From contig CAMYIF010000005.1 in NCBI GenBank assembly GCA_947258415.1, forward strand, positions 1 to 47,435: a DNA stretch of 47,435 nucleotides, read 5' to 3'. Both the position numbers and the translations under genes were made by a program. Of this stretch, positions 20,089 through 37,010 are shown one piece after another (positions within the stretch are counted from its first letter, which is position 1; each line of letters starts with the position of its first letter). Origin of the DNA: an uncultured Pseudomonadales bacterium (GTDB lineage Bacteria > Pseudomonadota > Gammaproteobacteria > Pseudomonadales > IMCC2047). Under the pieces are notes generated by a model, which was given only the letters and a program-made list of their open reading frames with translations, ran no database searches and was not told where the DNA came from.

Positions 20089-21603
20089 ATGAGCTTAGCC
20101 ATTATTTATTCGCGGGCAAAATACGGAATAGATGCCCCTCTGGTCACCGTAGAGACTCATTTATCGAACGGCTTGCCGAGTGTGTCCATTGTCGGCTTGC
20201 CAGAGGCCGCCGTTAAAGAAAGCAAGGATCGGGTGCGCAGCGCGATAATCAATTCGCACTTCGAATTTCCTGCGCGGCGCATCACTATCAACCTGGCGCC
20301 GGCCGATTTGCCCAAGGAAAGCGGGCGTTTTGACCTGGCAATAGCAATCAGTATTCTGGCAGCCTCTGGCCAAATCTCGAACAAACAACTCGAAAATTAC
20401 GAATTTTTGGGAGAACTTGCGCTTACCGGAAGTCTTCGGAAGGTTCAAAGCGCTTTACCTGCATCACTGCAATGCGCCAGCGAGCAACGGGTTTTGTTTA
20501 TCCCGAAAATGAACGCCAGCGAGGCCAGCCTGCCGGAAAAGGCGCGCGTGTTGGCGGTTAGTCATTTGCTCGATGTTTGCGCGCACCTTGACGGCCGGCA
20601 AACGCTCGAAGATTTTCATCCCTGCATGGAGTCTTCTCCGGCAGTCAGCAATCTCGACCTGAATGAAATAAAGGGACAATTCCAGGCAAAACGCGCGCTG
20701 GAAATTACCGCTGCGGGTGGCCACAACCTGCTGCTTATCGGACCCCCCGGCACGGGTAAAACAATGATCGCGTCCAGGCTACCAACCATTCTTCCAGAGT
20801 TGTCAGAAAAAGCAGCGATGGAGGTGGCAACAATAGGTTCCTTAACCAACCGGGTATTTTGTCCGTCTAACTGGCGGACACCGCCGTTCAGGTCCCCGCA
20901 TCACACTGCCTCGGCAGTTTCACTGGTCGGTGGTGGCAGCAACCCGAAACCCGGAGAAATTTCGCTGGCACACAATGGTGTCCTGTTCCTGGATGAACTG
21001 CCCGAATTTGATCGCAAGGTCCTTGAAGTGCTACGCGAGCCCATTGAAGCCGGTGAAATTATTATTTCTCGCGCAAATCACCAGGCAAGGTTTCCGGCCA
21101 GGTTCCAACTGATTACCGCCATGAACCCGTGCCCGTGCGGTTACCTTGGCGACGCGAAAAGCAGTTGCCGTTGTACCCCTGACAAGATCAGGCGTTACCG
21201 GCAACGCATTTCGGGTCCATTGCTCGACCGCATCGACATGCACCTGGAGGTGATGACAAATACCCGGGAATTATTAACCGATGGCATGGACCTGGAAGCA
21301 TCAAGCGCTGTGGTAAAAAGTAGAGTAATCGATGCCCGGCAAAGGCAAATCGAACGCCAGGACTGCATTAACAGCGATTTGACCATCAAGGAGATTGAAA
21401 GGGTCTGCAAACTTGGCGCGGAAGATACCGATCTGCTGAGGCAGGCAATCGATAAACTTAACCTTTCAGCCCGGGCGTATCACCGAGTACTCAAAGTCGC
21501 TCGTAGCATTGCCGATTTAGCCAACTCTGAGCTGATAAAAAGCATTCATTTAATGGAAGCTTTAGGCTATCGGAAAATGGACAGGATGAACGATTATTAC
21601 TAG
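20089..21603 (+). CDS. comM: YifB/ComM Mg-chelatase-like AAA+ ATPase
   Basis: IVGLPEAAVKESKDRVR, GPPGTGKT, PFRSPHH, LFLDELPEF, ISGPLLDRID. Confidence 0.95.
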   Translation: MSLAIIYSRAKYGIDAPLVTVETHLSNGLPSVSIVGLPEAAVKESKDRVRSAIINSHFEFPARRITINLAPADLPKESGRFDLAIAISILAASGQISNKQLENYEFLGELALTGSLRKVQSALPASLQCASEQRVLFIPKMNASEASLPEKARVLAVSHLLDVCAHLDGRQTLEDFHPCMESSPAVSNLDLNEIKGQFQAKRALEITAAGGHNLLLIGPPGTGKTMIASRLPTILPELSEKAAMEVATIGSLTNRVFCPSNWRTPPFRSPHHTASAVSLVGGGSNPKPGEISLAHNGVLFLDELPEFDRKVLEVLREPIEAGEIIISRANHQARFPARFQLITAMNPCPCGYLGDAKSSCRCTPDKIRRYRQRISGPLLDRIDMHLEVMTNTRELLTDGMDLEASSAVVKSRVIDARQRQIERQDCINSDLTIKEIERVCKLGAEDTDLLRQAIDKLNLSARAYHRVLKVARSIADLANSELIKSIHLMEALGYRKMDRMNDYY

Positions 21604-23348
21604 CCGGTTACCGGCTGGATCTGTGCCTGCATTTTTTCTTTTTGCTTTAACAGGCTCTTGCAAATATTACTGAATGGAATGGCCTCCTGGTAAAAATAAC
21701 CCTGCACCTGGTCGCAATCGTTTTCACGAAGCAGGGCCAATTGCTGTAAATTTTCTACGCCCTCCGCAATCACATGCATGCCCAGGTTATGTGCCAGGTT
21801 AATAATGGCTTTGACAATCACGGCATCACCCGCCTCATTGACGGCATTCTGGACAAAACTTTTGTCTACTTTTAGCGCAGTAATCGGCAGGCCTTGAAGA
21901 TGGGCAAACGATGAATACCCCGTGCCAAAATCATCCAGCGAAAAGTGCACACCCAGGTTACTCAAATCGTCCATACAGCGACGCGTTTCTCCTTCGCTGG
22001 CCATCACCGCCGTTTCTGTTAACTCGAATTCGAGGAAGCGGGCGTCAACCTGGGTTTTTTTAATTATCCTGGAAACTGTTTCTTTTAATTTTTTGTCCTG
22101 GAACTGGCGAAAAGATAGATTGACGGCGATTCGTACGAAAAAGCCCTGGTCCTGCAAATATTTAAGGCCCAGGCAAGCTTGATGAATCACCCAGTAACCC
22201 ATGGAAACAATTAACCCCGACTCCTCTGCCAGCGGGATAAATTCGTCAGGCGTCAACATACCCCGGTCCGGGTGCTGCCAACGTATTAAACCTTCCATGC
22301 CGACAATTTCGCCACTGTCTATATCTACCCGCGGCTGAAATAACAGGCGAAACTCGTTGCGTCTCAGGGCACGCCTGAACTCGGCCTCCATAACCAGTTG
22401 ATTGGACGCATTCGTGCTTAATTCACGCGAATAAAAACAAAAACTCGATCCCTGCTCTTTTTTTGCCTGGCTGACAGCAAGGTTAGCTGCCCGCATCAGT
22501 GCTTCAGCGTTCTGGCCACTGGTCGGGTAAAAAGCGATGCCGATACTGCTGGTTAAATATACCTGGTCACCGGGCACGGTGTAGGGTTTACCAAGCTCGT
22601 CGCTAATCTGGTGCACCATCCTCAGGACATCTGACTCTTCCATCACACCTTCGAGAATAATGGCAAACTCATCACCGCTATTACGCGCCAGGCTGTCACT
22701 TTTTCGAATACAGGATTGCACCCGATCGGCCGCAGTCCGGATCACTATGTCACCGGCTTCACGCCCGTAAGTATCATTGACTCCCTTGAATTTATCCAGA
22801 TTCAAGGCAAGCAAAACTACTTTTTGTCGCGATCGTTCCGCCCTTTGTAACGCATGGGTAAGGCGATCATTGAACAGTGTCCGGTTGACCAGGCCCGTCA
22901 GGGCATCGTAATGATCGTGATAATCGAGTTTGACTTGCGCGTCTTTTAACTGCAGGACATAGCGCAGGGAGCGCTCGAGCGAGATAACATCCAGTGAACC
23001 CTTATCGAGGTAATCGGCAGCACCTGCCTTGATCAACGAAGAACCCAGGGCAGCGTCCATGTCAGAGCTGACAATAATAATTTGCGCCGAGGGGTTAAGT
23101 GATTTAACTTCGCTGAAAAAATCCGTATCGCCTTCAGTACCCAGGTAGTACTCGGTAATAATTATATCGTACGGCTGACTGCTCAATTTTCTGAGTGCCT
23201 TGCCAACGGTGCGACACCAGGTCAGCTTGTGGGTGAGGCCGTCAATCTGGCGGAGAGTATAATCCAGATGCAGTTTCTCGGAGTGCTGCTCGTTGACAAG
23301 TAAAATGCGAACCTGGTCGCCCTGTAAACACTGCTCTAGTAAGCCCAT
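21600..23348 (-). CDS. Receiver-like + GGDEF(SGDEF) + EAL protein, likely c-di-GMP phosphodiesterase
   Basis: N-terminal REC-like fold; DALTGLVNR, RNSGDEF; EGLIRW, ELTE, DDFGTGYSS, AEGVE. Confidence 0.9.
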   Translation of the reverse strand: MGLLEQCLQGDQVRILLVNEQHSEKLHLDYTLRQIDGLTHKLTWCRTVGKALRKLSSQPYDIIITEYYLGTEGDTDFFSEVKSLNPSAQIIIVSSDMDAALGSSLIKAGAADYLDKGSLDVISLERSLRYVLQLKDAQVKLDYHDHYDALTGLVNRTLFNDRLTHALQRAERSRQKVVLLALNLDKFKGVNDTYGREAGDIVIRTAADRVQSCIRKSDSLARNSGDEFAIILEGVMEESDVLRMVHQISDELGKPYTVPGDQVYLTSSIGIAFYPTSGQNAEALMRAANLAVSQAKKEQGSSFCFYSRELSTNASNQLVMEAEFRRALRRNEFRLLFQPRVDIDSGEIVGMEGLIRWQHPDRGMLTPDEFIPLAEESGLIVSMGYWVIHQACLGLKYLQDQGFFVRIAVNLSFRQFQDKKLKETVSRIIKKTQVDARFLEFELTETAVMASEGETRRCMDDLSNLGVHFSLDDFGTGYSSFAHLQGLPITALKVDKSFVQNAVNEAGDAVIVKAIINLAHNLGMHVIAEGVENLQQLALLRENDCDQVQGYFYQEAIPFSNICKSLLKQKEKMQAQIQPVTG

Positions 23349-23976: not shown

Positions 23977-24364
23977 TACAACTACCTCGTTATAAATCAG
24001 ATGAAAATGTGCCATTGCAGGCACATTAACTTTTGAAAATTAATCAGGATATACCTGCGAGTATAACGATTATTGGCGTATTGGAAAATAAAAAGATGCC
24101 GGTTGTTTATTTTCAAATACTTTATGCATGCCCGGAATGAACTCTTTTGCATACTTTCAGGGTTAAAAATAATTCCTGGCTTCGGCTCGAAACCCTGATT
24201 GATATCGATATCTCCAATTAAATGAAACGGCACCGGGGCGGACGAATTCCAAAACTTTACAGCGAGCAATACCCTCGTTATCGCAGTGAATGCAGGCGAC
24301 TCGCCCAGTGATAATTATCGCCTGGCAGCACAGGCAGGCGATACCATCAGGCAAGGACTGTTGA

Positions 24365-24393
24365 TGGACTAAGCCGGGCAAGGTGCGTATTAT
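24365..24393 (+). promoter_or_regulatory. Putative sigma70 promoter of the tRNA pair
   Basis: TGGACT-N17-TATTAT ending 17 nt before the first tRNA. Confidence 0.6.
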
Positions 24394-24409
24394 TGCGTTT
24401 CCTGAAATT

Positions 24410-24486
24410 GCGCCCGTAGCTCAGCTGGATAGAGTAGTGGCTTCCGAAGCCATTGGTCGCAGGTTCGAATCCTGCCGGGCGCGCCA
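24410..24486 (+). tRNA. tRNA-Arg(CCG)
   Basis: Cloverleaf GCGCCCG...; anticodon arm GTGGC-TTCCGAA-GCCAT; GGTTCGAATCC; encoded CCA; 77 nt. Confidence 0.97.
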
Positions 24487-24550
24487 AAAATTAAATGTAC
24501 ATGGGCCCTATTGTGTATAAAATGGTGCCTGCATTTAATACTTCAATTAC

Positions 24551-24627
24551 GCCTCCGTAGCTCAGCTGGATAGAGTAACCGGCTTCGAACCGGTTGGTCG
24601 GGAGTTCGAATCTCTCCGGGGGCGCCA
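24551..24627 (+). tRNA. tRNA-Arg(TCG)
   Basis: Acceptor GCCTCCG/CGGGGGC, anticodon arm ACCGG-CTTCGAA-CCGGT, T arm GGGAG-TTCGAAT-CTCTC, encoded CCA; 77 nt. Confidence 0.95.
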
Positions 24628-24693
24628 TATTTTGATCCTGAGAATTTCCTTATAGGCTGTTGTGCTTGCAGAAGCTGGCAATTAGAGACAGGT

Positions 24694-27600
24694 CTAGACT
24701 GTGTTCTTGTTAAAAACCAGGAATGATTTTTCAAATTCTTCCGCAGAAACAGGCTTGCCGAGATAATAACCCTGCATGTAGTTACATTTTTTCTCGGTTA
24801 AATATTCTTTCTGCAATTTGGTTTCAACACCTTCGGCAATGACTTTTACGCCCAGGCTATGCGCCAGGGTGATAATGGTGGTAACAATGTCGCCATCGAC
24901 TTTATCGCTGGTGATATTCGATACGAAGGCGCGGTCAATTTTCAACAGGTCGATGGGGAATTTTTTCAAATAATTCAGCGATGAATAACCCGTACCGAAA
25001 TCATCAATTGCCAGCATAACCCCCATATTTTTAAGCTGTTTAAGCGTTTCAATAACCTGTTCAGCGTTTTTCATAATGGTGCTTTCGGTAATCTCCAGCT
25101 CCAGGAAATGGGCAGGCAAACCGGTCTCATTGAGTATTTCTGCAACGTGAGTCGTTATATCACCTTTATCGAGCTGACGCCCGGCCAGGTTGACCGCTAT
25201 CCTGATCGGTGACTGACCCTTGTCCAGCCACTGCTTCAACTGCGCGCAGGCTTCTCTCATAACGAATTCACCCAATTCAAAAATCTGCCCCGTTTCTTCG
25301 GCCAGTGGTATGAACTCCATTGGGCTAACCAGGCCGCGCTCCGGATGTTGCCAACGCACCAGCGCCTCCATGCCGATCAACTCCCCGGTTTGAAGGTCTT
25401 CCTGTGGTTGGTAATAAACAACCATTTCATTTCGGGCAATGGCGCCGCGCAAATCAATTTCTATCCCCAGGCGACGCGCAACATCTGCTTCCATTTTTTG
25501 TTCATAAAACTCGTAACAATTTCCTTTTTCCTTGGCTCGGTACATAGCGATGTCGGCATTTTTTAGCAATACACCAATTTCTTCTCCGTCGTTCGGGTAT
25601 AACGAAATGCCGATACTGGTTTTTACGTGCATTTCCTTGCCCAGGAAAACGAACGGTCGCGACAGGGTATCGTGAATTTTTGAAGCAATTTTCTCTACGG
25701 CCGAGAATGACTTTATCCTGTTCAATACGATGGTGAATTCATCGCCGCCAAACCTTGAGACAATATCCCCTTGCCTGAGGCATCGTTGCAGGCGCTCGGC
25801 GACGACCTTGAGCAACAGGTCACCGGCATCATGACCGAAGGTGTCGTTCACCAGCTTGAAGCGATCCAGATCAAGAAACAGGATCGCAGCCATATTTTCT
25901 TCTGACATCTCTTCGAGAGTTTTCGTTAATTGCTCGGTAAACAGTGTCCGGTTTGGCAAACCGGTAAGGGTATCGTTATAGGCGAGCTTAAGCACATGTT
26001 TTTCAGCTCGACTGGCCTGCAGAATACGCGCGATACGTTTGCGAAGTACGGCAAAATTAACCGGTTTGGATATGTAATCGGTCGCCCCCGCCGCAAAGGC
26101 CCGACCAATGGATGTTTCATCGTTAAGGGAGGTAATGATCAGCACCGGGACATGCTTGCCGCCAGCCAGGGACTGAATTTCCGAACAGGCCTTGAAGCCA
26201 TCCATTTCAGGCATAATGGCATCCATGAGTACAAGTTCAGGCAAAAAGCGTTCACAGTAAGCCAGTGCCTGCTCTCCATTGTTTACATGGTCGACACGAT
26301 ATCCATCCTTTTCCAGCACTTTTCGCATGGCAAAACGCATGCCGCGATCATCGTCGACTATTAGTATTCTCTGCTGGCTATGATCCATGGCCGGGCTTTC
26401 GCTAATACCATAGAGCAGCTCATACGACTGATCCTGTTCGGCAGGATCTTTATCGGGACGGACTTTTCTTTCCAGTGCAAGCTGCAATAGTCCACACTCA
26501 GCGATAACCTTATCCATTAATTCTTCAACGCCCTGGTTATCACTCGCCCTGCTTTTAGCTTCGAGCTCGGCGCATACTTTGGTGAGGCGATGCGCACCGA
26601 AATTACCGGCAGCGCCCTTGATGCTGTGGGCAAAATCTCCGCTGGCCTGACTATCCTTAACCTTGACAGCATCTTTCAGTGAACGAATATAGGAAGGCAT
26701 ATCGTCAAGGAATACCTTGACCATTGTTGGCAGGGCAGCGCCAATTTGCTTGCGCAATTCATTGAAAACCTGCACGTCGATTACTTCATTGTCTACCTCT
26801 TTTACATCACAGACTGCGACCTCATTTTCCGAACTGATATTCCCGGTTTCGGCGCTAACAAATTCTTTAACTTCAAGCCACTTGCTCAGGGTAGCCCGCA
26901 GGCACTCAAGTTTTAAAGGTTTGGGCAAATAATCGTTCATTCCAACAGCAAGGCATTTTTTGCTTTCGCCTTTTTGAACATTCGCGGTCATGGCAACAAT
27001 CGGCACCCTGGAAGAATCGGTTTCAAGGCGCCTGATTTGCGAGGTCGCCTCATAACCATCCATTTCTGGCATATGGCAGTCCATGAGAATCAGGTTGAAT
27101 GTTTCCCTGGAAAGAATTTCCAGTGCTTCGCGTCCATTATTTACATAAGCCGATTTACACCCCAGTCGCTCCAGCATTCCGCTTGCGACTTGTTGATTGG
27201 CTCGATTATCTTCGACAATCAATATCTTGTTGCCGCCAAAAGTTTCTATTTTACTCGTATTCGCATTCCCTCCATCGACCCGAGTATCCTTATCTTCAAC
27301 AAATTCAAGTTTGCGATACAATGCATCGATTTTGTCGGCCAGGTCTTTAAACAACACCGGCTTGGACAGGAAGCCGGCAATATTTAAACGGTGCGTGTCT
27401 TCGTAGGTTGGATTAACCCTGTTGACCATCATCAGGACTTTAGTATTTGCAATCGAAGGCTCGTTAACAATCAGGTGCGCAAGGTCAGAGCCTTTCAGGC
27501 CGGGCATGACTTCGTCCATCAATACAAGGTTATAATTTTGATGATTTGCTGCCGACAATCGGAGTTTATCCAGGGCAACCGCACCATTCTCCGCGATATC

Positions 27601-29232
27601 GTAGGGAATTTTTAGTCGTTCCAGCATGCCGCCCAGGTAACGACGGTTGAGCGGGCTATCGTCGACTACAAGCACGCGCAACTTCTCCGGCTCGGATATC
27701 GTTTCGTGGCTGGGCACAGGCGCGTCAACCTGGACCGGAACCGGCAGGGTAAACCAGAATTCGCTGCCTTTACCCTGTTCGCTTTCAACGCCGATTTCAC
27801 CCCCCATAAAATGTATAATTTGCCTCGATATAGCCAACCCCAATCCCGTCCCGCCATACTTCCGCGTGGTAGAACCGTCTGCCTGGGAAAAAGCTTCAAA
27901 TATTTTTTCCCTGACTTGTTCCGTCATCCCTATACCTGTATCGGTAACCTTAAATAAAAGCTCGAGATGATCCTCGTGCTTCTGTTTCAGACTGACCTCG
28001 ATTCCCACTTCACCCCGATCGGTAAACTTAAGCGCATTGCCAACCAGGTTAATTAATACCTGGCGCAAGCGTCCAATGTCGCATTGCAAGTTGACGGGAA
28101 CCTCGCTGCCCAGGATATAAGCGATATCGATATCCTTACGTTGCGCCTGGGTACTAAGCAATAAGATAATATCCTCGAGCAGGGCATCCAGATCAAACGA
28201 CACATTTTCAGAATTAATTTTCCCCGAGTCGATCTTGGAGAAATCGAGAATATCGTCAATTAAAAGCAACAATGATTCTGCGGAATCACTGGCAATATCA
28301 ATATACTCGGTCTGCTTTTCGTTTAAGCCCATGTCTTCGAGCAACTCGAGCATACCCAGCACGCCGTTTAACGGAGTGCGCAATTCATGGCTTACATTTG
28401 CAGCGAATTCGCCTTTAACGCGCGCCGCCTCGAGCGCCAAATCCCGGGTTCCCCTGAGCTCCTCTTCGCGTGCGTCCAGCACGTTCATCATCTGGTTAAA
28501 CGCAATTTCCATTTCAATGACGTCGCGCGTACCCTTGATATCGGCCCGGATATCTTTTTCACCCTCTTTGGCGCGGCCCATGATGGTTGCCAAGTCCCTT
28601 ATCGGGTTAGTTATACGCGTGGTAATTGCTAAAAGTATAACAAGCAGCAATGCGGCAAGGGCCAGCGATACCAGCAGGTTGTAACGGAAAATATCTGCTT
28701 CCATACGATGTATGGATTCTTTGCCCAGCACAATTCGCACATAACCGACCAGTTCGGCCTGCGCCTCCTGGCCTAAAAAGGGTGAATCATCTTCAACCTG
28801 GGTACCGGTATAAACGGGCGAAACAAAATGCCAATGCTCGCTGTTTTCCGAGACAAGGCTCAATGAATCTGGCCAACTCGAATCTTGTTCCAGTTGGTTA
28901 ACTTTTTTGTCGGTTCCGTAGAGGAGTTTTTTCTCGTTATCGAAAATGCTTACTTCTACCAGGTCTGGAAAAGCAAGCATGGTGTCAGCTATGTACTTGG
29001 CTTCTGATTCGCTGAGGTAGAGCAGGGAAACGCGACTGCGTTCTGCAGTCGTTTTAGTCAGGTTTAAACCTTCCTGCAGCAATCGATCGCTAACCGAGCG
29101 AGTGGACAGCGTTGTCGTCACCATAGTAGTGATTAACGCAAGCAGTAAAATCCCGATGCTAAAGGTCCAAACCAGAAGCTTTCTGAATCCTACGCGATTA
29201 ATCCATTTATTTGGTAACGATTTCATGGTCAT
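24694..29232 (-). CDS. Membrane hybrid sensor: 2TM/periplasmic-HAMP-HisKA-HATPase-REC-REC-HPt-REC-GGDEF-EAL
   Basis: SHELRTPLNG, NLVGNALKFT, DTGIG, GGTGLGL; three receivers (LMDEVMP, LMDCHMP, LMDAIMP, each with KP); HPt AHSIKGAAGNFGA; RFGGDEF; EALVRW, DDFGTGYSS. Confidence 0.93.
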   Translation of the reverse strand: MTMKSLPNKWINRVGFRKLLVWTFSIGILLLALITTMVTTTLSTRSVSDRLLQEGLNLTKTTAERSRVSLLYLSESEAKYIADTMLAFPDLVEVSIFDNEKKLLYGTDKKVNQLEQDSSWPDSLSLVSENSEHWHFVSPVYTGTQVEDDSPFLGQEAQAELVGYVRIVLGKESIHRMEADIFRYNLLVSLALAALLLVILLAITTRITNPIRDLATIMGRAKEGEKDIRADIKGTRDVIEMEIAFNQMMNVLDAREEELRGTRDLALEAARVKGEFAANVSHELRTPLNGVLGMLELLEDMGLNEKQTEYIDIASDSAESLLLLIDDILDFSKIDSGKINSENVSFDLDALLEDIILLLSTQAQRKDIDIAYILGSEVPVNLQCDIGRLRQVLINLVGNALKFTDRGEVGIEVSLKQKHEDHLELLFKVTDTGIGMTEQVREKIFEAFSQADGSTTRKYGGTGLGLAISRQIIHFMGGEIGVESEQGKGSEFWFTLPVPVQVDAPVPSHETISEPEKLRVLVVDDSPLNRRYLGGMLERLKIPYDIAENGAVALDKLRLSAANHQNYNLVLMDEVMPGLKGSDLAHLIVNEPSIANTKVLMMVNRVNPTYEDTHRLNIAGFLSKPVLFKDLADKIDALYRKLEFVEDKDTRVDGGNANTSKIETFGGNKILIVEDNRANQQVASGMLERLGCKSAYVNNGREALEILSRETFNLILMDCHMPEMDGYEATSQIRRLETDSSRVPIVAMTANVQKGESKKCLAVGMNDYLPKPLKLECLRATLSKWLEVKEFVSAETGNISSENEVAVCDVKEVDNEVIDVQVFNELRKQIGAALPTMVKVFLDDMPSYIRSLKDAVKVKDSQASGDFAHSIKGAAGNFGAHRLTKVCAELEAKSRASDNQGVEELMDKVIAECGLLQLALERKVRPDKDPAEQDQSYELLYGISESPAMDHSQQRILIVDDDRGMRFAMRKVLEKDGYRVDHVNNGEQALAYCERFLPELVLMDAIMPEMDGFKACSEIQSLAGGKHVPVLIITSLNDETSIGRAFAAGATDYISKPVNFAVLRKRIARILQASRAEKHVLKLAYNDTLTGLPNRTLFTEQLTKTLEEMSEENMAAILFLDLDRFKLVNDTFGHDAGDLLLKVVAERLQRCLRQGDIVSRFGGDEFTIVLNRIKSFSAVEKIASKIHDTLSRPFVFLGKEMHVKTSIGISLYPNDGEEIGVLLKNADIAMYRAKEKGNCYEFYEQKMEADVARRLGIEIDLRGAIARNEMVVYYQPQEDLQTGELIGMEALVRWQHPERGLVSPMEFIPLAEETGQIFELGEFVMREACAQLKQWLDKGQSPIRIAVNLAGRQLDKGDITTHVAEILNETGLPAHFLELEITESTIMKNAEQVIETLKQLKNMGVMLAIDDFGTGYSSLNYLKKFPIDLLKIDRAFVSNITSDKVDGDIVTTIITLAHSLGVKVIAEGVETKLQKEYLTEKKCNYMQGYYLGKPVSAEEFEKSFLVFNKNTV

Positions 29233-30170
29233 CTATCAGGAAAAATCAAATTAAATTCCCGCATTTGGGAGCGGGTTATTTTTAACTTCAAATGCTCGGC
29301 CGTTCGCACGTTGACGGCAATTAATAGATTTTCCAATGCCTCGACTGTTTTACTTTCACCCCTGGCAACAAGTCCGGCCTTTTTTGACAGGCTTTTACCC
29401 ATCTGGATATTATCCGGGAACAGTGAAAATAATGCGCCACGCTTTACATGCGACGGGTTGCTCGAAAAAACAACCGTGTGCCGGTCCCATGCCTCACTCA
29501 TCAGCCTGGGTAACATGCCTTTTTCGTCCAGGGTTGGGTCCGCCTGTAATAGCCAGATTGCATCAGCCCCGCTTACCTGTTCACTCAGGAGTTTCTGGTA
29601 GGTTTTTGCAGCGTCTCGTGCACCATCGGCCGGCACAGTGACCAACTCCAGATCCAGTTCTTTTGCAGCCTTACTGGCCAATCTAACAAGCCAGCCGTTG
29701 CTTTCTTCGTGGTATACAACAGAAACACGACGAATATCAGGCACCAATTCCTTGAGCTTTGTAAACAGCATTTTCGGCGAAGGTGCCAATGATATCCCGA
29801 CTATTCCATGCTTAATATCCTTATCGGATAAAAGCGCTGCGCCTGTGACAACATTTAAACCGGTGGGTAACTGAGTTACAACAGATTTGACTCGGCTACC
29901 GAGAGAAATGACAACCTCGGGATTTGCTTTATTTAACCAGCTTTCCAGCTCTTCGATATCATCGCCTGCCCGAATTGCGTACATCCGGACCTTGCCATTT
30001 GCCTCGCGCGAAATACCCTTGATGATATCGCCAAAAATACTACGATAGGGCTCGCGCACATCAGGGTATAACACGGCCAGTGTTGGCCCCCTGGCGTTAG
30101 CGCTTAAAGACAATATCAAAGCCGCTATAATACATAACGTTTTGAATGTCAGCCCAATTTTATTCTTCAA
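29229..30170 (-). CDS. Periplasmic ABC-substrate-binding-like protein (orphan, no permease/ATPase in the window)
   Basis: Signal peptide (SANA), LFTKLKELVPDIRRVSVVY, GALFSL, AVNVRTAEHLKL resembling ABC_sub_bind-type proteins; TTG start overlapping the upstream stop. Confidence 0.75.
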   Translation of the reverse strand: MKNKIGLTFKTLCIIAALILSLSANARGPTLAVLYPDVREPYRSIFGDIIKGISREANGKVRMYAIRAGDDIEELESWLNKANPEVVISLGSRVKSVVTQLPTGLNVVTGAALLSDKDIKHGIVGISLAPSPKMLFTKLKELVPDIRRVSVVYHEESNGWLVRLASKAAKELDLELVTVPADGARDAAKTYQKLLSEQVSGADAIWLLQADPTLDEKGMLPRLMSEAWDRHTVVFSSNPSHVKRGALFSLFPDNIQMGKSLSKKAGLVARGESKTVEALENLLIAVNVRTAEHLKLKITRSQMREFNLIFPDR

Positions 30171-32290
30171 CCCCGTTCCCTTTTCCGTAACTCGGATAAA
30201 TTCTTTTTATTAGGTACACAAGAGCACTTTCTGACTTCGGCGAACACACTGCGTCCTGCCTGAGGTAAATCACCGGGTATAGCAACTGTTCCTGTGAGGG
30301 GGTCGTAGAGCGATGGCTCCAGCACCTTGTCATCGGTCAAATTGCGAATCGAAACAGCAACGCTGAGGCCATACGCCAGTTTTTTGCCCCTGAGGGTAAG
30401 GTCAATGGTCGTATAGTCATCAATATCACTACGCATATCACCTGAAGCACGTTTTCTGTCCATCACATGATTGAGCTGGGTATTGATCGACCAATAGTGC
30501 GATAACTCAATATTGGCCTGCAGGTAAATTTGATGTTGCGGTGCATTTGCCGCATCGGTATCGGTCTGTTCATCCTCCGATTTCTGATAGGCGTAGTTAC
30601 CTTTTATTTTCAGCCTGCGCATTGCATCCCAATCAAATTCAAGCTCAAGACCATGGCCAGTCTGGTTGCCGGAATTCTGGGCTACCGGCGTAAACCGGAT
30701 GATGTCCAGGAATTCGTAATAAAACAGGTTCATGCCAAACCGCAGGTCGCTGGTATGGTTGTAGTCAAATGCCAGTTCGTAGGTATCGATCCTTTCAGGG
30801 TCCAGGTTGGGATTACCGATGGCAATCGGGTTGGCCTGGTTAAACTGTTCGGCAAAGGAGGGCGCCCGAAATGCCGAACCGTATAAAAACTTGCTGGTCA
30901 GGTCGATGGTCGTATCCCAAACCAGCGCGAGACGTGGATTGGTCGTGGTACCAAAATCAGAATAATCATCAATTCTCAAACCGGCTGTCAGTGACCAGTC
31001 GCGGACAAAATCCCATTCGTCCTGAACAAAAACATACCTGACTGTTCGGTCCTCTTCCCGGTTAAAAATGGCCGCGCCACTGACGGGCATCACTGAACCC
31101 AGAAATGGCGGCGGGAACCCTGCACCAAAGTTTTTAGATTCTTCGATTCGGTATTGATCCAGCAGGTGATAGCCGGTGCCAATGCGAATCACATGATTTT
31201 CAAAACCGGTATAGAAGGTCGACAGGTCAAAACGGTAGTGCCGCTCGTAGTAGTCGGGGTTCCCGATAACCCCGTTAGGGAATGTGCCAAAGGCACCCGG
31301 AGGGTAGAGTTCCAGGTCCAGTTGCGTGGCCACATCATAAAAGCTGAAGCGGGTTTCCAGCTCCCAGTGTTCGTAGATTTCCGGATTTAGGTAAGTCACA
31401 TCCAGGTTGAACCGGTCGCTATTGCCTTCACCTTCGGTGTCCAGCGCTTGCGCTGCGCCACTACCGGTTTCAATATCTCGCCGTCCCTGGTAGCCCAGGC
31501 GAATACGCCAATACTCCTTGCTCAGGTCGATACGGGCATCGATGGATTCCCTGCCGGTATTGACACCACCAGGGGCCAGCGAGGCAGATGTTGCGAACAG
31601 GCCGTCAAAAGCAGTCTGGGCATCGGCGCCTATTTTTTCGTCATGACCTGAGGTATCGAGCAATTCCAGCGAAAATGCCACATCCCAACCTCTGACTTCA
31701 GTCCCGTAAAGGGCCCATGCTCGATGCTCATCGAAGCTGCCCGCCGAAATACCGGTTTCAACGCCATTAATTTCGTCGGCTGTTTTGGTGACAATATTGA
31801 TGGTACCGGCAAAGGCATCGGCGCCGTAGACGGCAGAACCCGGTCCGCGGATAACCTCAATCCTGGAAATATTTTCAACCGGCATCCCGCCCCAGGCTTC
31901 ACCCCTGTTGCCAAAAAGCAACTGGGTGGTTGGTATACCATTGATCAGCACAAGTACTTGCGGGTTAAATTCGGAATAGATTCCCCGGAAAGTAAAAATC
32001 GGCTCATAACCGGCGCCTTTCCTGGCGACATGAACGCCGGGCACCGATTCGAGTACTTCTGTTATGTCCCTGGCTCCCGTCTGCTGAATTTCTTCGGCCG
32101 TAATCAGCGTGGTAACCGCTGGCGCTTTTGAAATTAGTTGTTTTCTGCCAGTAGCGATGGAAACAAAATCCTCATCGCCGTACGAAAGTAATAAATCATT
32201 TCCTTCTACAACCTGATTTCCATATCCGTATTGGGAAAAACCGAGCAGGCAAATAATGCCACCCAAAAAGCACGGAATGTGATTTTTCAT
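30167..32290 (-). CDS. TonB-dependent outer membrane receptor
   Basis: Signal peptide, plug motifs (APAVTTLITAEEI, RIEVIRGPGSAVYGADAFAGTINIVTK), barrel motifs (AFRAPS, NPNLDPE, IRNLTD, GRSVFAEV). Confidence 0.93.
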   Translation of the reverse strand: MKNHIPCFLGGIICLLGFSQYGYGNQVVEGNDLLLSYGDEDFVSIATGRKQLISKAPAVTTLITAEEIQQTGARDITEVLESVPGVHVARKGAGYEPIFTFRGIYSEFNPQVLVLINGIPTTQLLFGNRGEAWGGMPVENISRIEVIRGPGSAVYGADAFAGTINIVTKTADEINGVETGISAGSFDEHRAWALYGTEVRGWDVAFSLELLDTSGHDEKIGADAQTAFDGLFATSASLAPGGVNTGRESIDARIDLSKEYWRIRLGYQGRRDIETGSGAAQALDTEGEGNSDRFNLDVTYLNPEIYEHWELETRFSFYDVATQLDLELYPPGAFGTFPNGVIGNPDYYERHYRFDLSTFYTGFENHVIRIGTGYHLLDQYRIEESKNFGAGFPPPFLGSVMPVSGAAIFNREEDRTVRYVFVQDEWDFVRDWSLTAGLRIDDYSDFGTTTNPRLALVWDTTIDLTSKFLYGSAFRAPSFAEQFNQANPIAIGNPNLDPERIDTYELAFDYNHTSDLRFGMNLFYYEFLDIIRFTPVAQNSGNQTGHGLELEFDWDAMRRLKIKGNYAYQKSEDEQTDTDAANAPQHQIYLQANIELSHYWSINTQLNHVMDRKRASGDMRSDIDDYTTIDLTLRGKKLAYGLSVAVSIRNLTDDKVLEPSLYDPLTGTVAIPGDLPQAGRSVFAEVRKCSCVPNKKNLSELRKRERG

Positions 32291-32375
32291 TAACCCTCAC
32301 CTCAACTTACTGGGTATTACACCGAATATTTACAAACTTATTTTTATAGCTGTTTCATTAGTTTAGTCGGTATTT

Positions 32376-33188
32376 CTAGTTTTCCCATTTCCTTTGAGGT
32401 TTTCCTTCGTATGAAATGCGCTTGCACCTGAGCGGGAAGAAGGTTCCGGCGGGTTTATCAACGGCATCGATGTAACAGGCCATCATGCCAGCAGAATATA
32501 TCACAGCGCCCATTCGATAAAACTCTTTAGCTGTCAGCCCCTGATCTGCATATAACGCTGATGCAAAACCAGCGATATTGAGTTTCGTTCTATAGCGCAT
32601 TTTGATAAGTATTTTTTCTATTTCAAAGGCGAGCTTTACATGCGGGCCGTCGGAAGCACCCAACTCTTCCGCCAACCTTAATGCAACAGGAACCCTTTCA
32701 TCATTATTGGTTATTGGCCGACCAAAACCATAGGGCACGTTTTTACTAGCATCTATTTCATGCTTAACGACATCTACCAGTTCCTTGCCTTCGTCCACTA
32801 CTAATGTTTTAACCCGTGTAATAAAGTCCGCAGCAGCAAAACTTGCTTGCCCTCCGAAAAATTTGCTTTCAGATATCGCGGTTCCACAGGCTATTGCTAA
32901 CATACCCGTTGTTTTGGCAGATCCCGATATTGCCGCAACCCGATTGTTCCAGATTCTCGGTTCGGGGAAGCTGGTGCAAATGGCCCAGGTTCGGCTAAAA
33001 AGCTCGATTTGTTTTTTGCTAAGAAACTTGCCGGTGATGCTAAAAAACCAGATTTCAACCCAGTCTTTATCAAAAAATTCGGTAAACACATCCAGGCCCC
33101 TGAACACCACCCGTTCGCCCGCAAACCAGGCACCCATATCGGTTTCCCAGTTGTCTTCTCTCTCGATTAAAGTATCCGGTCCTTTCAT
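32376..33188 (-). CDS. Citrate synthase/citryl-CoA lyase-fold protein B, catalytic residues divergent
   Basis: RVVFRGLDV, FFGGQA, PYGFGRP, DERV, LNIAG align by eye with the YRG, HGGA, GFGH, DPR and NVD motifs of the fold. Confidence 0.7.
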   Translation of the reverse strand: MKGPDTLIEREDNWETDMGAWFAGERVVFRGLDVFTEFFDKDWVEIWFFSITGKFLSKKQIELFSRTWAICTSFPEPRIWNNRVAAISGSAKTTGMLAIACGTAISESKFFGGQASFAAADFITRVKTLVVDEGKELVDVVKHEIDASKNVPYGFGRPITNNDERVPVALRLAEELGASDGPHVKLAFEIEKILIKMRYRTKLNIAGFASALYADQGLTAKEFYRMGAVIYSAGMMACYIDAVDKPAGTFFPLRCKRISYEGKPQRKWEN

Positions 33189-34036
33189 TTGTTTATCTTT
33201 TCGAGATTATCTTTAACAGGTCCGGGATCGTTGGAAAGCTTTAACCCATCGGCAAAAAACGGGTATTTAGCCAGGCCATTATGCCTTTGTTCAAGCGCAT
33301 GCGCGCCTGCGCCGGGTAGTCGCAGAATCATAAACAGCATTTCAGCCTGCTCGTCCGTGAAGCCCAAATCGATAAAAGCAGCTGCGATTACTCCTACCAT
33401 AGCCAAGGGATTTCCGCTAAAGCCTTCAACGGATTCCCTGTTTTGTTTTAACCACTGCAATTGGCCTGCTTCCCCGATCTCGATCGACGACAGGTAATCC
33501 AGGGTTTGCTTAACGGGTGTTGAACAACTGCTACCGTAAGGATCAAAACCCGGGATATGCTCGATGTCCGGCCACGCTTTTACATCATCCTGTTTTTCAT
33601 AATTAGTCAGTTTATCCTGCCAAATTGCCAAATCCTTTCCACAGGTATTAATTAACCTGATGGCCAAAAACATTTCCCGGGCACCACCATATTGCCCGGA
33701 ACCGGGCCCAAGTGCGCCAATCAGGCAAGATGCAGCAATAGACCCACCTGCACCCCCGCTCATGGCAGCCCTGACACTTAGGTCGCGAGGCCCGGGATTT
33801 GCCAATGCTACGGCGACTCCTTCCAGAAGCTTTGTTTGAGTTTTTGAGGGTGGCTCAAGTTTGAAGAGAAGGTACAGATACTCGACCCAGCTGACTTTTC
33901 CCAGCAGGTCGCCGTAGACGTCAAAACCCGAGCAATAGCAGGCTTGTGCAGCGAAGGGATTATCGGGTTCGGGGATTTCTTGCCAGATTTTACTGTGAAT
34001 GACATCTTTTTGCCTAGGCTTGCCCGCGTCCGTCAT
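33185..34036 (-). CDS. Citrate synthase/citryl-CoA lyase-fold protein A, catalytic residues divergent
   Basis: GFDVYGDLLGK, NPGPR, YGGARE, IPGFDP, RLPGAGAHALEQ (like RxxGxxAHxxE of citryl-CoA lyases). Confidence 0.72.
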   Translation of the reverse strand: MTDAGKPRQKDVIHSKIWQEIPEPDNPFAAQACYCSGFDVYGDLLGKVSWVEYLYLLFKLEPPSKTQTKLLEGVAVALANPGPRDLSVRAAMSGGAGGSIAASCLIGALGPGSGQYGGAREMFLAIRLINTCGKDLAIWQDKLTNYEKQDDVKAWPDIEHIPGFDPYGSSCSTPVKQTLDYLSSIEIGEAGQLQWLKQNRESVEGFSGNPLAMVGVIAAAFIDLGFTDEQAEMLFMILRLPGAGAHALEQRHNGLAKYPFFADGLKLSNDPGPVKDNLEKINK

Positions 34037-34042
34037 CGCGTT

Positions 34043-35914
34043 TTATTTCAATCCATTTATGCGGGTAGCCAAGGGTGGCACTTCGTCAGCATCGATAACG
34101 ACATCAATAACGGTTGGTCCATTGCGTTTCAATATCGCCTCGATGTTCAGTTCGTGTAGTTCATCAGGCTTGGTAATCTGGTAACCTGGAATGCCCATGG
34201 ATTCTGCCAGTTTTGCGTAATTAGCAGCGGGCAATTGATGGCCGATGCTTGCAGATTTATTCATGATTTGTCCATGCTTGACCATACCCAGTGACGAGTC
34301 ATTCATAATCAGGAAGGTCACTTTCAGGTTATTTTGTAAGGCCACGGTGATTTCATTGCCGTACATCAGGAAGCCGCCGTCACCAATGATGCAAACTATG
34401 TGTTCATCCGGATTTGCCAACGACGCGCCAATGGCACTACCCACCGACCATCCCATCGAGCAGAAATCTGTGCACACCTGGAACAGCCCGCCATGTTGAT
34501 GCCGCCGACCGTCTTCATACCAGCGATCAAGTGATCGACGCTGACCCAACCGCCGGTCGAAAGGGTTCAGGTAATGTATTGCCCAGGCAAGGTTGTTACC
34601 TGCGTCTGCAAAGTATTTTGTATGAGCAGGGAAGATTTTCGTCAACTGGTGCATCAGCCACTGGGGTTTGATCGGCACCGAGTCATCAAAGATTTTTCGA
34701 GGCTCATCCAGGGTAAAATGCATGATATCATCGTATTTGGAATCATCTTTTTTGGCATTTTCCAGCCGTTCGCTTAATTCAATACCACTTTGAAGGCTGG
34801 TGTTTTGGGTAATGCCCTGGATAATCAGTTCATCCAGCACCTTGCTGAAAATGGAGAGAATATTTCCCCTGACATGCAGTTTTGCCATCGGTGTGCGAAT
34901 AAGGTTTGCCTCATCCGCTTCCACGTGGATAAGCCGATCATTCAGCAGTGTGTCTGCATCCCAGGCATTGCTGTTGAATTCGCCCAAAGAGGTTCCCACG
35001 GCGACCACGGTTTCAACTTCGGGATCGGCAAGCGCTTCATTGGCGCTTTTATGTCCGGCGAAACCAATCACACCCTTAAACTGCGGGTGGTAAGGGCTGA
35101 TAAAGCTTTTAGCATCGGGCATGGCGACAACCGACGAGCCCAGCAGACAAGCAATATCTATAATTAAACTTGCCGCGTCCCTGGTGCCGACGCCAAGAAC
35201 AAATACAACCTTTTTACCCTTCGACAACTGTTTGCAGAGCTCTGTTACAGCCTCTTTATCCTGCATTAACGGTCGCTTAACGGCTTTGTTTAAATCATAG
35301 GACGGCCCGTGTTGAGGCAAGCTTGCCTTTAAAATATCAGAAGGGATACTTAAATGCACTGGACCGTAGGGTGGGCGCAGGGCTGTCATAATGGCCGAAA
35401 TTAATTTGTTTTCAAGCTGGCCGATATGACTGACGAAGGAATTATAGAGTGTACAAAATTGATACATACCGACCACATTGACGCCGGTATCGCCTGACTC
35501 CTGCAAGGCTTTACGGCCAAACTTATCATGGACAGTTTGTGGCGTAATCACCAAGAGGGGAACGTTGTTCTCGTAAGCCGAAGCAACGCCGGTAAGCATG
35601 TTGGTTGCCCCCGGGCCTGTGGTTGAGCAACATACACCCAGATGGCCCGAGTTTTTTGCATAGCCACTAGCCATGAATGCAGCGCCGGTTTCGTGCCGGG
35701 CGATGATTGAGCGAATGCCATTGCTTGCTTCGCTTCGGGCCAGGGCATTGTAAAGCGCTTCTATTGCGCCACCCGGTATGCCAAACACATACTCGACATC
35801 GATTTGCTCAAGGTATTGGAGGATCAGGTCAGCGACGCGGACTTCCAGTTCGACACTTGACACGCTCGGGTCATCAAGAGACTTTTTGGCCAGGCCAAGC
35901 GCGTTTATACCCAT
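34043..35914 (-). CDS. Thiamine-diphosphate-dependent enzyme (acetolactate synthase/acyloin carboligase-like)
   Basis: VFGIPGG, ARHETGAAFMA (catalytic Glu), TTGPGATN, GDGGFLM...MNDSSLGMV ThDP-Mg motif; no ilvH/ilvC neighbours. Confidence 0.9.
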   Translation of the reverse strand: MGINALGLAKKSLDDPSVSSVELEVRVADLILQYLEQIDVEYVFGIPGGAIEALYNALARSEASNGIRSIIARHETGAAFMASGYAKNSGHLGVCCSTTGPGATNMLTGVASAYENNVPLLVITPQTVHDKFGRKALQESGDTGVNVVGMYQFCTLYNSFVSHIGQLENKLISAIMTALRPPYGPVHLSIPSDILKASLPQHGPSYDLNKAVKRPLMQDKEAVTELCKQLSKGKKVVFVLGVGTRDAASLIIDIACLLGSSVVAMPDAKSFISPYHPQFKGVIGFAGHKSANEALADPEVETVVAVGTSLGEFNSNAWDADTLLNDRLIHVEADEANLIRTPMAKLHVRGNILSIFSKVLDELIIQGITQNTSLQSGIELSERLENAKKDDSKYDDIMHFTLDEPRKIFDDSVPIKPQWLMHQLTKIFPAHTKYFADAGNNLAWAIHYLNPFDRRLGQRRSLDRWYEDGRRHQHGGLFQVCTDFCSMGWSVGSAIGASLANPDEHIVCIIGDGGFLMYGNEITVALQNNLKVTFLIMNDSSLGMVKHGQIMNKSASIGHQLPAANYAKLAESMGIPGYQITKPDELHELNIEAILKRNGPTVIDVVIDADEVPPLATRINGLK

Positions 35915-36115
35915 TCAAGCTCTCAGTTATAGTTATCTTTTCAGGAAATACTCAAACCAACAGACGCGCCCCCAGCACCATGGGGGACAAAATATAATGA
36001 AACGCCCAGCCTATGCAAGCCTAACTTATTGAATTAACGAAAATTCACAGAAGTTTCGTTATTTAAATCCCTATTATTATCGGCTTTACTCATGTCGACT
36101 TGATGGCAATTTGGT

Positions 36116-36979
36116 TTAGTGAAAAGCGTTGAAATGCAATGGTAGCTCGACTTCCATAGCGATAGGAAGGTGGTCAGAAGTGCAGCAGGGCAATACTTCC
36201 GCATGCTTGATGTTCAAGCTTGGGCTGACCAGAATATGGTCCAGATGATGGGTTGGTCGCCAACTGGGATATGTATTGAATGTTCCTGTTGCCGATTTTA
36301 ATTTGATCTCGGATAAGGGTGACAGGTTTAAAATATGGTCAGCACCACTATTCAGGTCGCCCATAATAATGACATGCTTGAAATCGGAGATTATTTCTTT
36401 CACGTATGATAATTGGTTTTGCCTGGCACGGGCACCCAGAGACAAGTGAAGTACAACCAGGACCAGCGGGTTATCAGCGGTACCAAAATGAGCCACGATG
36501 GCACCACGTCCCGGTATCAGGCCGGGCAGCTTATAGTCTTCGATTCGTTGCGGGCGCAGTTTACTCAACACGCCATTGCTGTGTTGCCCCCACTTACCCA
36601 GGTTGCGGTTGAGTTGCTGATACCAATAAGGGAATCCTGCGCTACATGCCAAATACTGAACCTGGTTTGTGTACCCACTTCTCCGGCTGCCACCATCAGC
36701 TTCCTGAAGGGCAACAAAGTCAAATCGGGCCAGTTGAGCCGCGATGGCATCAAGGTTTTTTGTTCTGCGTGGGTGCGGCAGCAAGTGCTGCCAACCTCGG
36801 GTCAGGTAATGACGATACGCAGCACTCTGGATGCCAACCTGTATGTTGTGGCTTAACAGCTTAATCGTTTTCCTGTTTTGGTTAAAAACATGACTCTCTT
36901 GCACTTGACGAAACGACGCCACGGAGACAGGTGCGGCCTCGGCGGATTTTGATAGATGAGGAGTCAAATGTCTTAGCAT
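36116..36979 (-). CDS. Endonuclease/exonuclease/phosphatase (EEP) family protein
   Basis: LSHNIQVG, VALQEAD, MGDLN, LDHILVS, SDHLP; conserved position after dsbA. Confidence 0.9.
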   Translation of the reverse strand: MLRHLTPHLSKSAEAAPVSVASFRQVQESHVFNQNRKTIKLLSHNIQVGIQSAAYRHYLTRGWQHLLPHPRRTKNLDAIAAQLARFDFVALQEADGGSRRSGYTNQVQYLACSAGFPYWYQQLNRNLGKWGQHSNGVLSKLRPQRIEDYKLPGLIPGRGAIVAHFGTADNPLVLVVLHLSLGARARQNQLSYVKEIISDFKHVIIMGDLNSGADHILNLSPLSEIKLKSATGTFNTYPSWRPTHHLDHILVSPSLNIKHAEVLPCCTSDHLPIAMEVELPLHFNAFH

Positions 36980-37010
36980 TACAATTGCCTATGATAAAAC
37001 TGCAGCAATG

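Follow-up and report, generated by a model that had tools for sequence, protein, structure and literature searches.

The 47,435-nt stretch considered here (contig CAMYIF010000005.1 of assembly GCA_947258415.1, from an uncultured Pseudomonadales bacterium; called the window below, at its full length) carries a cluster of six minus-strand open reading frames (ORFs) at positions 24694-35914, whose predicted products may together make, take up and sense a small molecule. In order of reading, they encode a putatively cytoplasmic thiamine diphosphate (ThDP)-dependent, carboligase-like enzyme (34043..35914, 623 aa); two paralogous proteins with the citryl-CoA-lyase fold, called here CS_A (33185..34036, 283 aa) and CS_B (32376..33188, 270 aa); a TonB-dependent outer-membrane receptor (30167..32290, 707 aa); a periplasmic binding protein of the PF04392 (ABC_sub_bind) family, with a TTG start (29229..30170, 313 aa); and a membrane sensor of 1512 aa (24694..29232). 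The first two genes are separated by 6 nt, the second and third overlap by 4 nt, the third and fourth are separated by an 85-nt spacer (32291..32375, read in the sequence), and the last two junctions are overlaps of 4 nt each. The six co-oriented ORFs of a preliminary description of this DNA, with their tight junctions, were reproduced exactly from coordinates and sequence, and its gene-family labels agree with Pfam and NCBIfam calls.

Enzyme and sensory genes, which that description had joined on the evidence of a single locus, co-occur strongly in other taxa. A profile of CS_B relatives, run against one genome per prokaryotic species, gave 299 pattern matches, 265 of them confirmed as relatives; the 80 best were kept, and their loci searched with the six window proteins by tblastn. 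All six genes are present in 58 of these 80 loci, 21 run into a contig or fetch end within 5 kb, and one (L028), although there is room on either side, contains only the enzymes. The gene order of the window is kept in most of the 58, with the binding protein-sensor pair inverted in L016, L026, L038, and L067, and L004 rearranged. The cluster is thus found in many Gammaproteobacteria of marine and freshwater habitats. Judging by record titles, the carriers include Porticoccaceae, Cycloclasticus and other Piscirickettsiaceae, Methylococcales, Chromatiales, Thiohalobacter, Thiogranum, Sedimenticola, Acidiferrobacterales, a Gallionella, Ca. Parabeggiatoa, Thiotrichales, and the isolate Shewanella salipaludis (L079); homologues are also recorded in Nitrosococcus (Nitrosococcus oceani Noc_1268).

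A second census, meant as a less biased view, used an even sample of 400 Gammaproteobacteria genomes; both the window's own genome and the unpublished G039 are counted in it, as is, for the binding protein, the unpublished G141. CS_B was matched in 41/400 genomes (34/321 genera), the binding-protein profile in 53/401, and a ThDP orthologue (E<=1e-95) in 44/400. CS_B and binding protein occur together in 38 genomes and all three in 35; the ThDP enzyme is accompanied by the binding protein in 41 of the 44 genomes that have it, and just three genomes without the binding protein carry it. CS_B loci were taken from 39 of the 40 other genomes in the sample (G039 was skipped), eight of them being the same contigs as loci among the best 80. 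All six genes were found in 24 of these 39 loci, 11 lie near contig ends, and four are incomplete with room to spare. With its recurrence in 58/80 and 24/39 loci, the six-gene arrangement is far beyond chance.

The strongest single result is a divergent clade in which CS_B is only 30-36% identical to that of the window. All six genes are there, but in a new order (ThDP enzyme, receptor, CS_A, CS_B, binding protein, sensor), with the receptor gene sitting within the enzyme block; the gene content therefore survives both deep divergence and rearrangement.

One argument against a single functional unit is that the six genes might form two separate modules, adjacent for co-regulation only, with the metabolite of the three enzymes unrelated to the ligand of the three sensory proteins. 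The cluster does split exactly at this boundary in G072 and G269 (two of the four incomplete even-sample loci), where the receptor, binding-protein and sensor genes lie ~14 kb from the enzyme genes on the same contig. There are also lone ThDP genes (L136, L138, L141-L143) and enzyme-only loci (L082, in addition to L028). In quick FastTree trees, the divergent clade forms a single group for CS_A and CS_B (one change) and nearly so for the receptor (two changes), while the ThDP enzyme (6 changes/10 rows), the binding protein (7/12) and the N-terminal domain of the sensor (7/12) do not track the CS clades, and have it scattered. Co-evolution of all six genes is not claimed here, the split appearing clean for CS_A and CS_B only. 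Against two independent modules, however, content is kept through a reshuffle that places the receptor gene among the enzyme genes, the ThDP enzyme is rarely found without the binding protein, and genes for tailoring enzymes have been inserted between the receptor and binding-protein genes of L015, L019, L032, and L058. Mere adjacency is, on this balance, an improbable explanation.

Two genomes in the even sample have what look like decayed or scattered clusters: L120 (G044) has just partial CS_B and ThDP matches, and L116 (G178) has a partial CS_B ~0.5 Mb away from a ThDP-CS_A pair. In L030 (8017-8553) and L046 (8068-8604), an IS200-like transposase gene (PF01797) has been inserted between the ThDP and CS_A genes. 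Short contigs with cluster genes also occur in metagenome-assembled genomes labeled Flavobacteriales and Mycobacterium (L057 and L069); their proteins are 48-57% identical to gammaproteobacterial ones, and given this, mis-binning seems likelier than transfer.

The ThDP protein has TPP_enzyme N, M, and C domains, and keeps its activating glutamate (in ARHE, residue 75) and a GDG...ND motif (511-539, with ND at 538-539) across 103 aligned sequences. This three-domain layout, with the glutamate and the GDG...N(D/N) motif, is that of the superfamily of ThDP-dependent enzymes related to acetolactate synthase (ALS) and pyruvate oxidase (ALS/POX-like). A plain ALS was considered and rejected: the protein scores 277 bits (275 in the genome search) against a cut-off of 538 in the ALS model TIGR00118, and the same genome has a genuine ALS on another contig (C57), at 855 bits. 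Its nearest solved chains are BbmA (266.5 bits) and CsmA (247.3 bits), both ahead of E. coli ALS I (183.5; PDB entries for BbmA and CsmA: 8x3x, 8x3z, 8xod); it also has a ScyA-related NCBIfam match at 254 bits. An Arg-rich insertion in the window protein (RRSLDRWYEDG..., 34460-34540, residues ~458-468) is missing from more than half of the orthologues.

CS_A and CS_B both have the C-terminal fold of citrate synthases, in the short form known from citryl-CoA lyases. CS_A has no Pfam match; its AlphaFold2 model (pLDDT 90) has PDB 6hxp as its top Foldseek match (TM-score 0.69/0.75, probability 1.0), followed by the lyase modules of ATP-citrate lyases. CS_B matches PF00285 (32.1 bits), and 6hxp is the best solved relative of both (E 3.5e-9 for CS_A; 1.6e-10 for the CS_B family profile). 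In fold and size they resemble the citryl-CoA lyases and the corresponding module of ATP-citrate lyase (6hxp, 6hxn, 6z2h), but their NCBIfam citryl-CoA lyase scores, 53.3 bits for CS_A and 53.7 for CS_B, are just a fifth to a third of the cut-offs (193-261).

Their catalytic residues were judged against the 6hxp motifs HGGA, GxGH (GYGH), and NVD, the Asp of the last corresponding to the mutated position of the ACLY D1026A entries. In HMMER alignments with 6hxp, CS_A has Tyr for the His of HGGA and gaps at the His of GYGH and the Asp of NVD. In CS_B the first of these positions is not a His, GYGHR is replaced by GFG-RP, and NVDG by NIAG; the protein does retain Arg165, in DER, which is the Arg of the DxR motif at the oxaloacetate site. 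The catalytic motifs are likewise missing from 82 and 90 aligned orthologues, the residue equivalence resting on alignments of ~20% identity. An ordinary citrate synthase or citryl-CoA lyase was rejected on these residues and on the sub-cut-off scores. The preliminary description had taken both proteins for enzymes; the fold that it assigned is borne out by 6hxp and Foldseek, and the canonical His/His/Asp triad of that fold is absent from the alignments and from the orthologues.

An exhaustive profile search found 147 proteins of this family at E<=1e-30 among 1.84 billion representatives. Among them are five natural CS_A-CS_B fusions (P0181, P0223, P0225, P0251, and P0257) of 503-574 residues, with the domains in gene order. 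The two genes are always side by side, their trees split alike, and their orthologue alignments have different sets of invariant residues (R84, H246, and E249 among those of CS_A; R157, D163, E164, R165, C238, and Y260 among those of CS_B). They would thus differ from the citryl-CoA lyases, which are homo-oligomers, in forming an A/B pair of paralogues that is sometimes fused, and we conclude that CS_A and CS_B probably work as such a pair, with a non-canonical site. There is in addition a tandem CS_B-CS_B fusion of 523 aa (P0143, metagenomic), from which the family appears to form pseudo-homodimeric versions as well. Databases label these proteins just "citrate synthase" or "hypothetical protein," and in the ESM Atlas a search for CS_A led just to "citrate synthase (unknown stereospecificity)" clusters.

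The cluster is read as biosynthetic because variants of it have genes for tailoring enzymes inserted within it. In a census of neighboring families covering 76 non-duplicate complete loci, an O-methyltransferase gene (PF00891 with the dimerization domain PF08100) lies inside the cluster in eight, and in nine loci overall: between the ThDP and CS_A genes in L056, L062, and L074; between the CS_B and receptor genes in L043, L044, and L107; between the receptor and binding-protein genes in L032 and L058; and also in the cut locus L008. L015 has a short-chain dehydrogenase/reductase (SDR) gene and a carbamoyltransferase gene between those for the receptor and the binding protein; L019 has an SDR gene, and L007 a carbamoyltransferase gene after that for CS_B. 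Independent insertions of enzymes that modify hydroxyl or keto groups are what would be expected around a scaffold bearing such groups, for example an acyloin.

Some loci have other genes where the CS pair would be. Among 15 sampled genomes with the binding protein but without CS_B, two (L125, L134) have, between the ThDP and receptor genes, a FabH-like ketoacyl-ACP synthase III (KASIII) gene together with one for an SDR or an unassigned 131-aa protein; a methyltransferase gene is in this position in L130. The KASIII loci may be read as in-place displacement by an analogous function, in which case the CS pair would use an acyl thioester for a C-C step on what the ThDP enzyme makes. A parallel comes from the carbazole core pathway, which, as outlined in PMC7466098, combines a ThDP enzyme (NzsH/CqsB3), a KASIII-like enzyme that condenses with an acyl thioester (NzsJ/CqsB1), and a further protein (NzsI/CqsB2); L125 and L134 resemble it in placing KASIII and a small protein or SDR alongside the ThDP enzyme. 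In the window and in most loci, however, two citrate-synthase-fold proteins would hold the KASIII role, and there is no acyl carrier protein and no prenyltransferase; the likeness drawn here is one of logic.

Beyond these insertions, no ABC (ATP-binding cassette) permease, exporter, reductase or catabolic gene is in a recurrent position among the neighbors of the 76 loci, and no further family is found in more than 12 of them. The commonest extra neighbors across lineages are a CheB-like Rec-methylesterase (12/76) and methyl-accepting chemotaxis proteins (MCPs; 9/76); other families in 10-11 loci are lineage-specific synteny in one related group (L034, L039, L047, and their kin). Genes for an ABC permease, an ABC ATPase or a DNA-binding regulator are likewise absent from the window, and do not recur beside the cluster. 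The preliminary description had noted that the six genes include no ABC transporter subunit, no transcription factor and no catabolic follow-up enzyme, and this holds across the census.

These counts also bear on the possibility that the compound is not made by the cell at all. An exogenous compound, for example one derived from aromatic amino acids, could be sensed by the receptor, binding protein, and sensor and, after transport by an unlinked route, degraded or detoxified by the three enzymes. ThDP and citryl-CoA-lyase-fold enzymes act in catabolism too, binding protein-sensor pairs occur without enzyme genes nearby (see below), and three solved PF04392 proteins bind L-Trp, L-Tyr, and L-Phe, according to PMC10443332. 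However, there are no inner-membrane transporter genes and no follow-up catabolic genes in a recurrent position, the inserted O-methyltransferase, carbamoyltransferase, and SDR decorate rather than degrade, and the KASIII substitution points to C-C bond formation; degradation of an outside compound is accordingly given little probability. If the cluster instead makes its own compound, a slight hint of an aromatic substrate might be seen in those same ligands, together with the ScyA-related match and the phenol-type methyltransferase.

The receptor has a signal peptide, a TonB-box-like sequence identified by eye (DFVSIATG), a plug domain (residues 55-163, 88 bits) and a barrel domain (281-651, 147 bits), and so the domain anatomy expected of a TonB-dependent receptor with a 22-strand barrel. 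It reaches the cut-off of no NCBIfam subfamily. Its nearest solved chains are CirA, BtuB, and PirA, with the similarity running through the plug only. Its Pfam matches include no N-terminal signaling extension ahead of the plug, which begins at residue 55; a TonB-dependent transducer of the FecA type was rejected on these grounds.

A receptor of this kind raises the main competing explanation, that the product is a metallophore or other shared public good: a hydroxy-carboxylate or acyloin chelator would be imported as its metal complex, with the binding protein and sensor reporting its arrival, as FecA/FecR do for ferric citrate, in this case through cyclic di-GMP (c-di-GMP). TonB-dependent receptors are the classical metallophore gates, the solved chains nearest to the window receptor are receptors for siderophores, colicin, and B12, a citrate-synthase fold hints at poly-carboxylate chemistry, and tailoring genes within the cluster are typical of siderophore clusters too. 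But the complete loci have no recurrent gene for an inner-membrane permease, ABC ATPase, reductase or exporter, the receptor lacks a signaling extension, the CS pair lacks the residues that make citrate-type products, and the conserved neighbors are chemosensory rather than concerned with metal homeostasis. Upstream of the ThDP gene, the best match to a Fur box is 12/19, and 46/237 200-nt windows do as well or better. A metallophore is, in our estimation, unlikely, though the most serious of the alternatives to a sensed signal.

Passage from periplasm to sensor would fall to the last two genes. The binding protein has a signal peptide, scores 39.1 bits in PF04392 (gathering threshold 25.9), matches PDB 3lkv (E 2e-5), and is the sole copy in the 2.49-Mb genome. 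No cognate permease or ATPase for it was found in the window or recurring in the 76 loci, the rest of the genome lying outside the partner search. The sensor has the layout TM-sCache_4-TM-HAMP-HisKA-HATPase-Rec-Rec-Hpt-Rec-GGDEF-EAL, where TM is a transmembrane segment. The sCache_4 domain (28711-29094) scores 24.8 bits against a gathering score of 22.1, and lies between the two transmembrane segments; GGDEF is at 25519-25983 and EAL at 24751-25455. The H-box (SHELRTP, 281), the Hpt motif (HSIKG, 869), RxxD (1153), GGDEF (1162), EAL (1290), and DDFGTGYSS (1410) are intact; with the receiver Asp sites, these motifs predict a hybrid-kinase phosphorelay with c-di-GMP output.

What is conserved in the sensor across loci is its N-terminal ~260 residues, the sCache_4-HAMP input, to which different outputs have been attached. 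The full-length relay-GGDEF-EAL form accounts for 43 of the 60 complete sensor ORFs; the remainder are PAS-GGDEF-EAL, kinase only, kinase-receiver, and PAS-kinase-Rec-Hpt proteins, and one has a GAF insert. The preliminary description's proposal of c-di-GMP as the output thus fits the commonest type, and the PAS-GGDEF-EAL proteins; it is not universal, given the kinase-only and PAS-kinase-Rec-Hpt sensors.

Joint modeling of the binding protein with the periplasmic domain of the sensor gave an ipSAE of 0.43, against 0.01 for the best control, with runs agreeing in at least 88% of contacts and partner pLDDT of at least 78. A mark of 0.43 is reached by 58/80 solved complexes and 2/110 mismatched pairs, values up to 0.60 coming from seven of those 80 and both of the mismatches. 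The model gives weak support to docking of the binding protein on the sensor. Pairs of the two genes also occur with no ThDP or CS gene within ~10 kb, in L123 (G324), L127 (G302, where the receptor is present), and L129 (G289, which has a ThDP orthologue on another contig). These may be listener-only genomes, responding to a shared external molecule, or they may reflect assembly gaps.

The CheB-like and MCP neighbors are found mostly where the sensor has no GGDEF-EAL. CheB-like genes flank the cluster in L015 (5300-6379 and 19805-20803), L021, L023, L030, L031, L033, L045, L046, L089, L098, L099, and L106, and a Rec-SpoIIE phosphatase gene and an MCP gene adjoin it in L134. To judge by these neighbors, the signal may in some lineages be routed to chemosensory proteins.

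Several known systems have properties in common with this cluster. In Vibrio, CqsA products are alpha-hydroxyketones, a class of compound also made by ThDP carboligases, and in LuxP-LuxQ a small molecule made by the cell itself (AI-2) reaches a hybrid histidine kinase by way of a periplasmic binding protein. The NCBIfam matches of the window sensor include LuxQ, at 371 bits (cut-off 1200). In both LuxS/LuxPQ and CqsA/CqsS, however, the synthases, binding-protein family and sensor input are unrelated to those found here; the output here would be c-di-GMP, set within the same polypeptide, and not LuxU/LuxO, and the signal would have to pass a TonB-gated receptor. The best NCBIfam match of the sensor is BarA, at 522 bits, and it shares with the BarA/GacS hybrid kinases the sCache_4, HAMP, and HisKA-HATPase-Rec-Hpt domains. 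It differs in falling short of the BarA cut-off (890), in having a further Rec-GGDEF-EAL, with which the relay would end within the protein, and in the pairing of its gene with one for a binding protein.

The closest parallel in logic is ScrABC. ScrA is a pyridoxal phosphate (PLP)-type enzyme; the putative makers in the window are instead a ThDP enzyme and two citryl-CoA-lyase-fold proteins, with no PLP-type gene among the six, a distinction drawn at the level of enzyme family. In Vibrio parahaemolyticus, as summarized in PMC10269520, one operon encodes ScrA, which makes an autoinducer-like S signal, the periplasmic ScrB, which binds it, and the membrane GGDEF-EAL protein ScrC, which under the control of ScrB toggles between cyclase and phosphodiesterase. 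The window cluster has the same architecture, a candidate signal-making enzyme, a periplasmic binding protein and a membrane GGDEF-EAL sensor in one putative operon. ScrABC is without a TonB-dependent receptor, however, and the sensor of the present cluster is in most loci a full phosphorelay ahead of GGDEF-EAL, with an sCache_4 input. The window cluster may thus work like ScrABC and LuxP-LuxQ while being a member of neither family.

Taken together, these observations suggest that the six genes act as one unit: the cell would make its own signal from an acyloin, recover it with the TonB receptor, capture it with the PF04392 protein, and pass the information on to c-di-GMP. We put this at about an even chance. 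The ThDP enzyme, CS_A, and CS_B would build an acyloin-derived small molecule in the cytoplasm, from substrates at least one of which is perhaps an aryl-pyruvate, with a CS_A/CS_B heterodimer, using a non-canonical site in the citryl-CoA-lyase fold, either adding an acyl-thioester-derived unit to the acyloin or cyclizing it. In some lineages the product would be O-methylated, reduced or carbamoylated further. It would leave the cell by an unlinked route, be returned across the outer membrane and concentrated in the periplasm by the receptor, and be bound there by the orphan PF04392 protein, which would dock on the sensor at its sCache_4 domain. A relay from His281 through Rec and the Hpt His869 to Rec would then, in this genome, set the balance of GGDEF and EAL, and hence c-di-GMP; elsewhere, the output would be another.

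The two halves of this proposal do not stand on the same footing. The genes themselves, their persistence as a set despite rearrangement, the domain anatomy, the missing triad, the CS_A-CS_B fusions, and the tailoring genes within clusters are seen directly; the chemistry, secretion, ligand, contact between binding protein and sensor, and role in population signaling are proposed. Of the make-import-sense scheme in the preliminary description, the linkage of the modules is upheld, and the make step is supported by the tailoring genes and the separate ALS; the absent catalytic triad and the variety of outputs call for its correction.

Several points weigh against the proposal. The classical cargoes of TonB receptors are nutrients and metallophores rather than autoinducers. 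With the His/His/Asp triad absent from both, the CS-fold proteins might bind rather than catalyze; displacement by KASIII is seen at two loci, and BbmA and CsmA, being names only, point the ThDP enzyme to no particular reaction. No exporter is linked to the cluster, so that exit of the product is a proposal, and the predicted complex of binding protein and sensor is of weak-support grade. Three of the 41 CS_B-positive genomes have no binding-protein match, and the split loci, lone ThDP genes and scattered trees described above count on the same side. Finally, no RNA run was found with this stretch, the sole sequencing run to contain it being a DNA run labeled marine sediment metagenome.

No description of the cluster, of the Nitrosococcus locus tags, or of the combination of ThDP enzyme, citrate-synthase-fold proteins, TonB receptor, binding protein and c-di-GMP was found in the literature, subscription journals and supplements being outside the search. 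The preliminary description's view of the system as undescribed can be kept to that extent, and needs qualifying in that the logic of the circuit has a working precedent in ScrABC as that system is summarized in PMC10269520. Precedents exist, then, for the logic; the enzymes, the outer-membrane gate, and the pairing of sCache_4 with PF04392 are without one.

A broader reading, held only tentatively and with rather less than an even chance, is that the cluster represents a new and widespread class of cell-to-cell signal, made by a ThDP enzyme and a CS heterodimer with an unseen catalytic mechanism, with O-methyl, carbamoyl or reduced dialects in different lineages, heard through a TonB gate, and acting, in methanotrophs, hydrocarbon degraders, sulfur oxidizers, and ammonia oxidizers, on c-di-GMP or on chemosensory outputs. 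If so, about a tenth of the sampled gammaproteobacterial genomes would hold an uncharacterized signaling system; perception of the signal would be gated at a TonB-dependent step, that is, by energy-dependent import across the outer membrane; ThDP would provide a third chemical route to hydroxyketone-type signals, beside PLP and S-adenosylmethionine; and the citrate-synthase fold would have a new catalytic use. The proposal would also give a concrete and testable source of ligand for two large orphan groups, the PF04392 proteins without transporters and the BarA/GacS-type sCache_4 sensors, for most of which no ligand is known. There are cultured carriers (S. salipaludis and N. oceani, above), and the question is therefore directly testable.

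The intergenic region upstream of the ThDP gene (35915..36115, minus strand) presumably contains the promoter and leader. An Rfam scan at E<=1 over 24000-37000 found just two tRNAs and sub-threshold noise, with no family in this region; a riboswitch or other leader RNA was rejected on that scan. Promoter-like sites were no more frequent than in shuffled sequences (17 found, 18.1 expected), and a terminator scan likewise did no better than shuffles, with no terminator-like site inside the 85-nt spacer.

The host genome is a draft of 2.49 Mb in 229 contigs, 95.8% complete. Placement of the cluster between a pair of tRNA genes and an EEP-dsbA block, as previously described, was found again: two tRNA-Arg genes lie at 24410-24627, on the strand opposite to the cluster, and its upstream neighbors encode an EEP-family protein, DsbA, a di-haem cytochrome c, an EngB-like GTPase, and PolA. 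On the far side of the tRNA genes are those for a cytochrome c, a Rec-GGDEF-EAL protein, ComM, and AmtB. This separate Rec-GGDEF-EAL protein (21600-23348, minus strand, 582 aa), just past the tRNA and cytochrome c genes, is a possible further c-di-GMP player, or a possible phosphorelay target, near the cluster.

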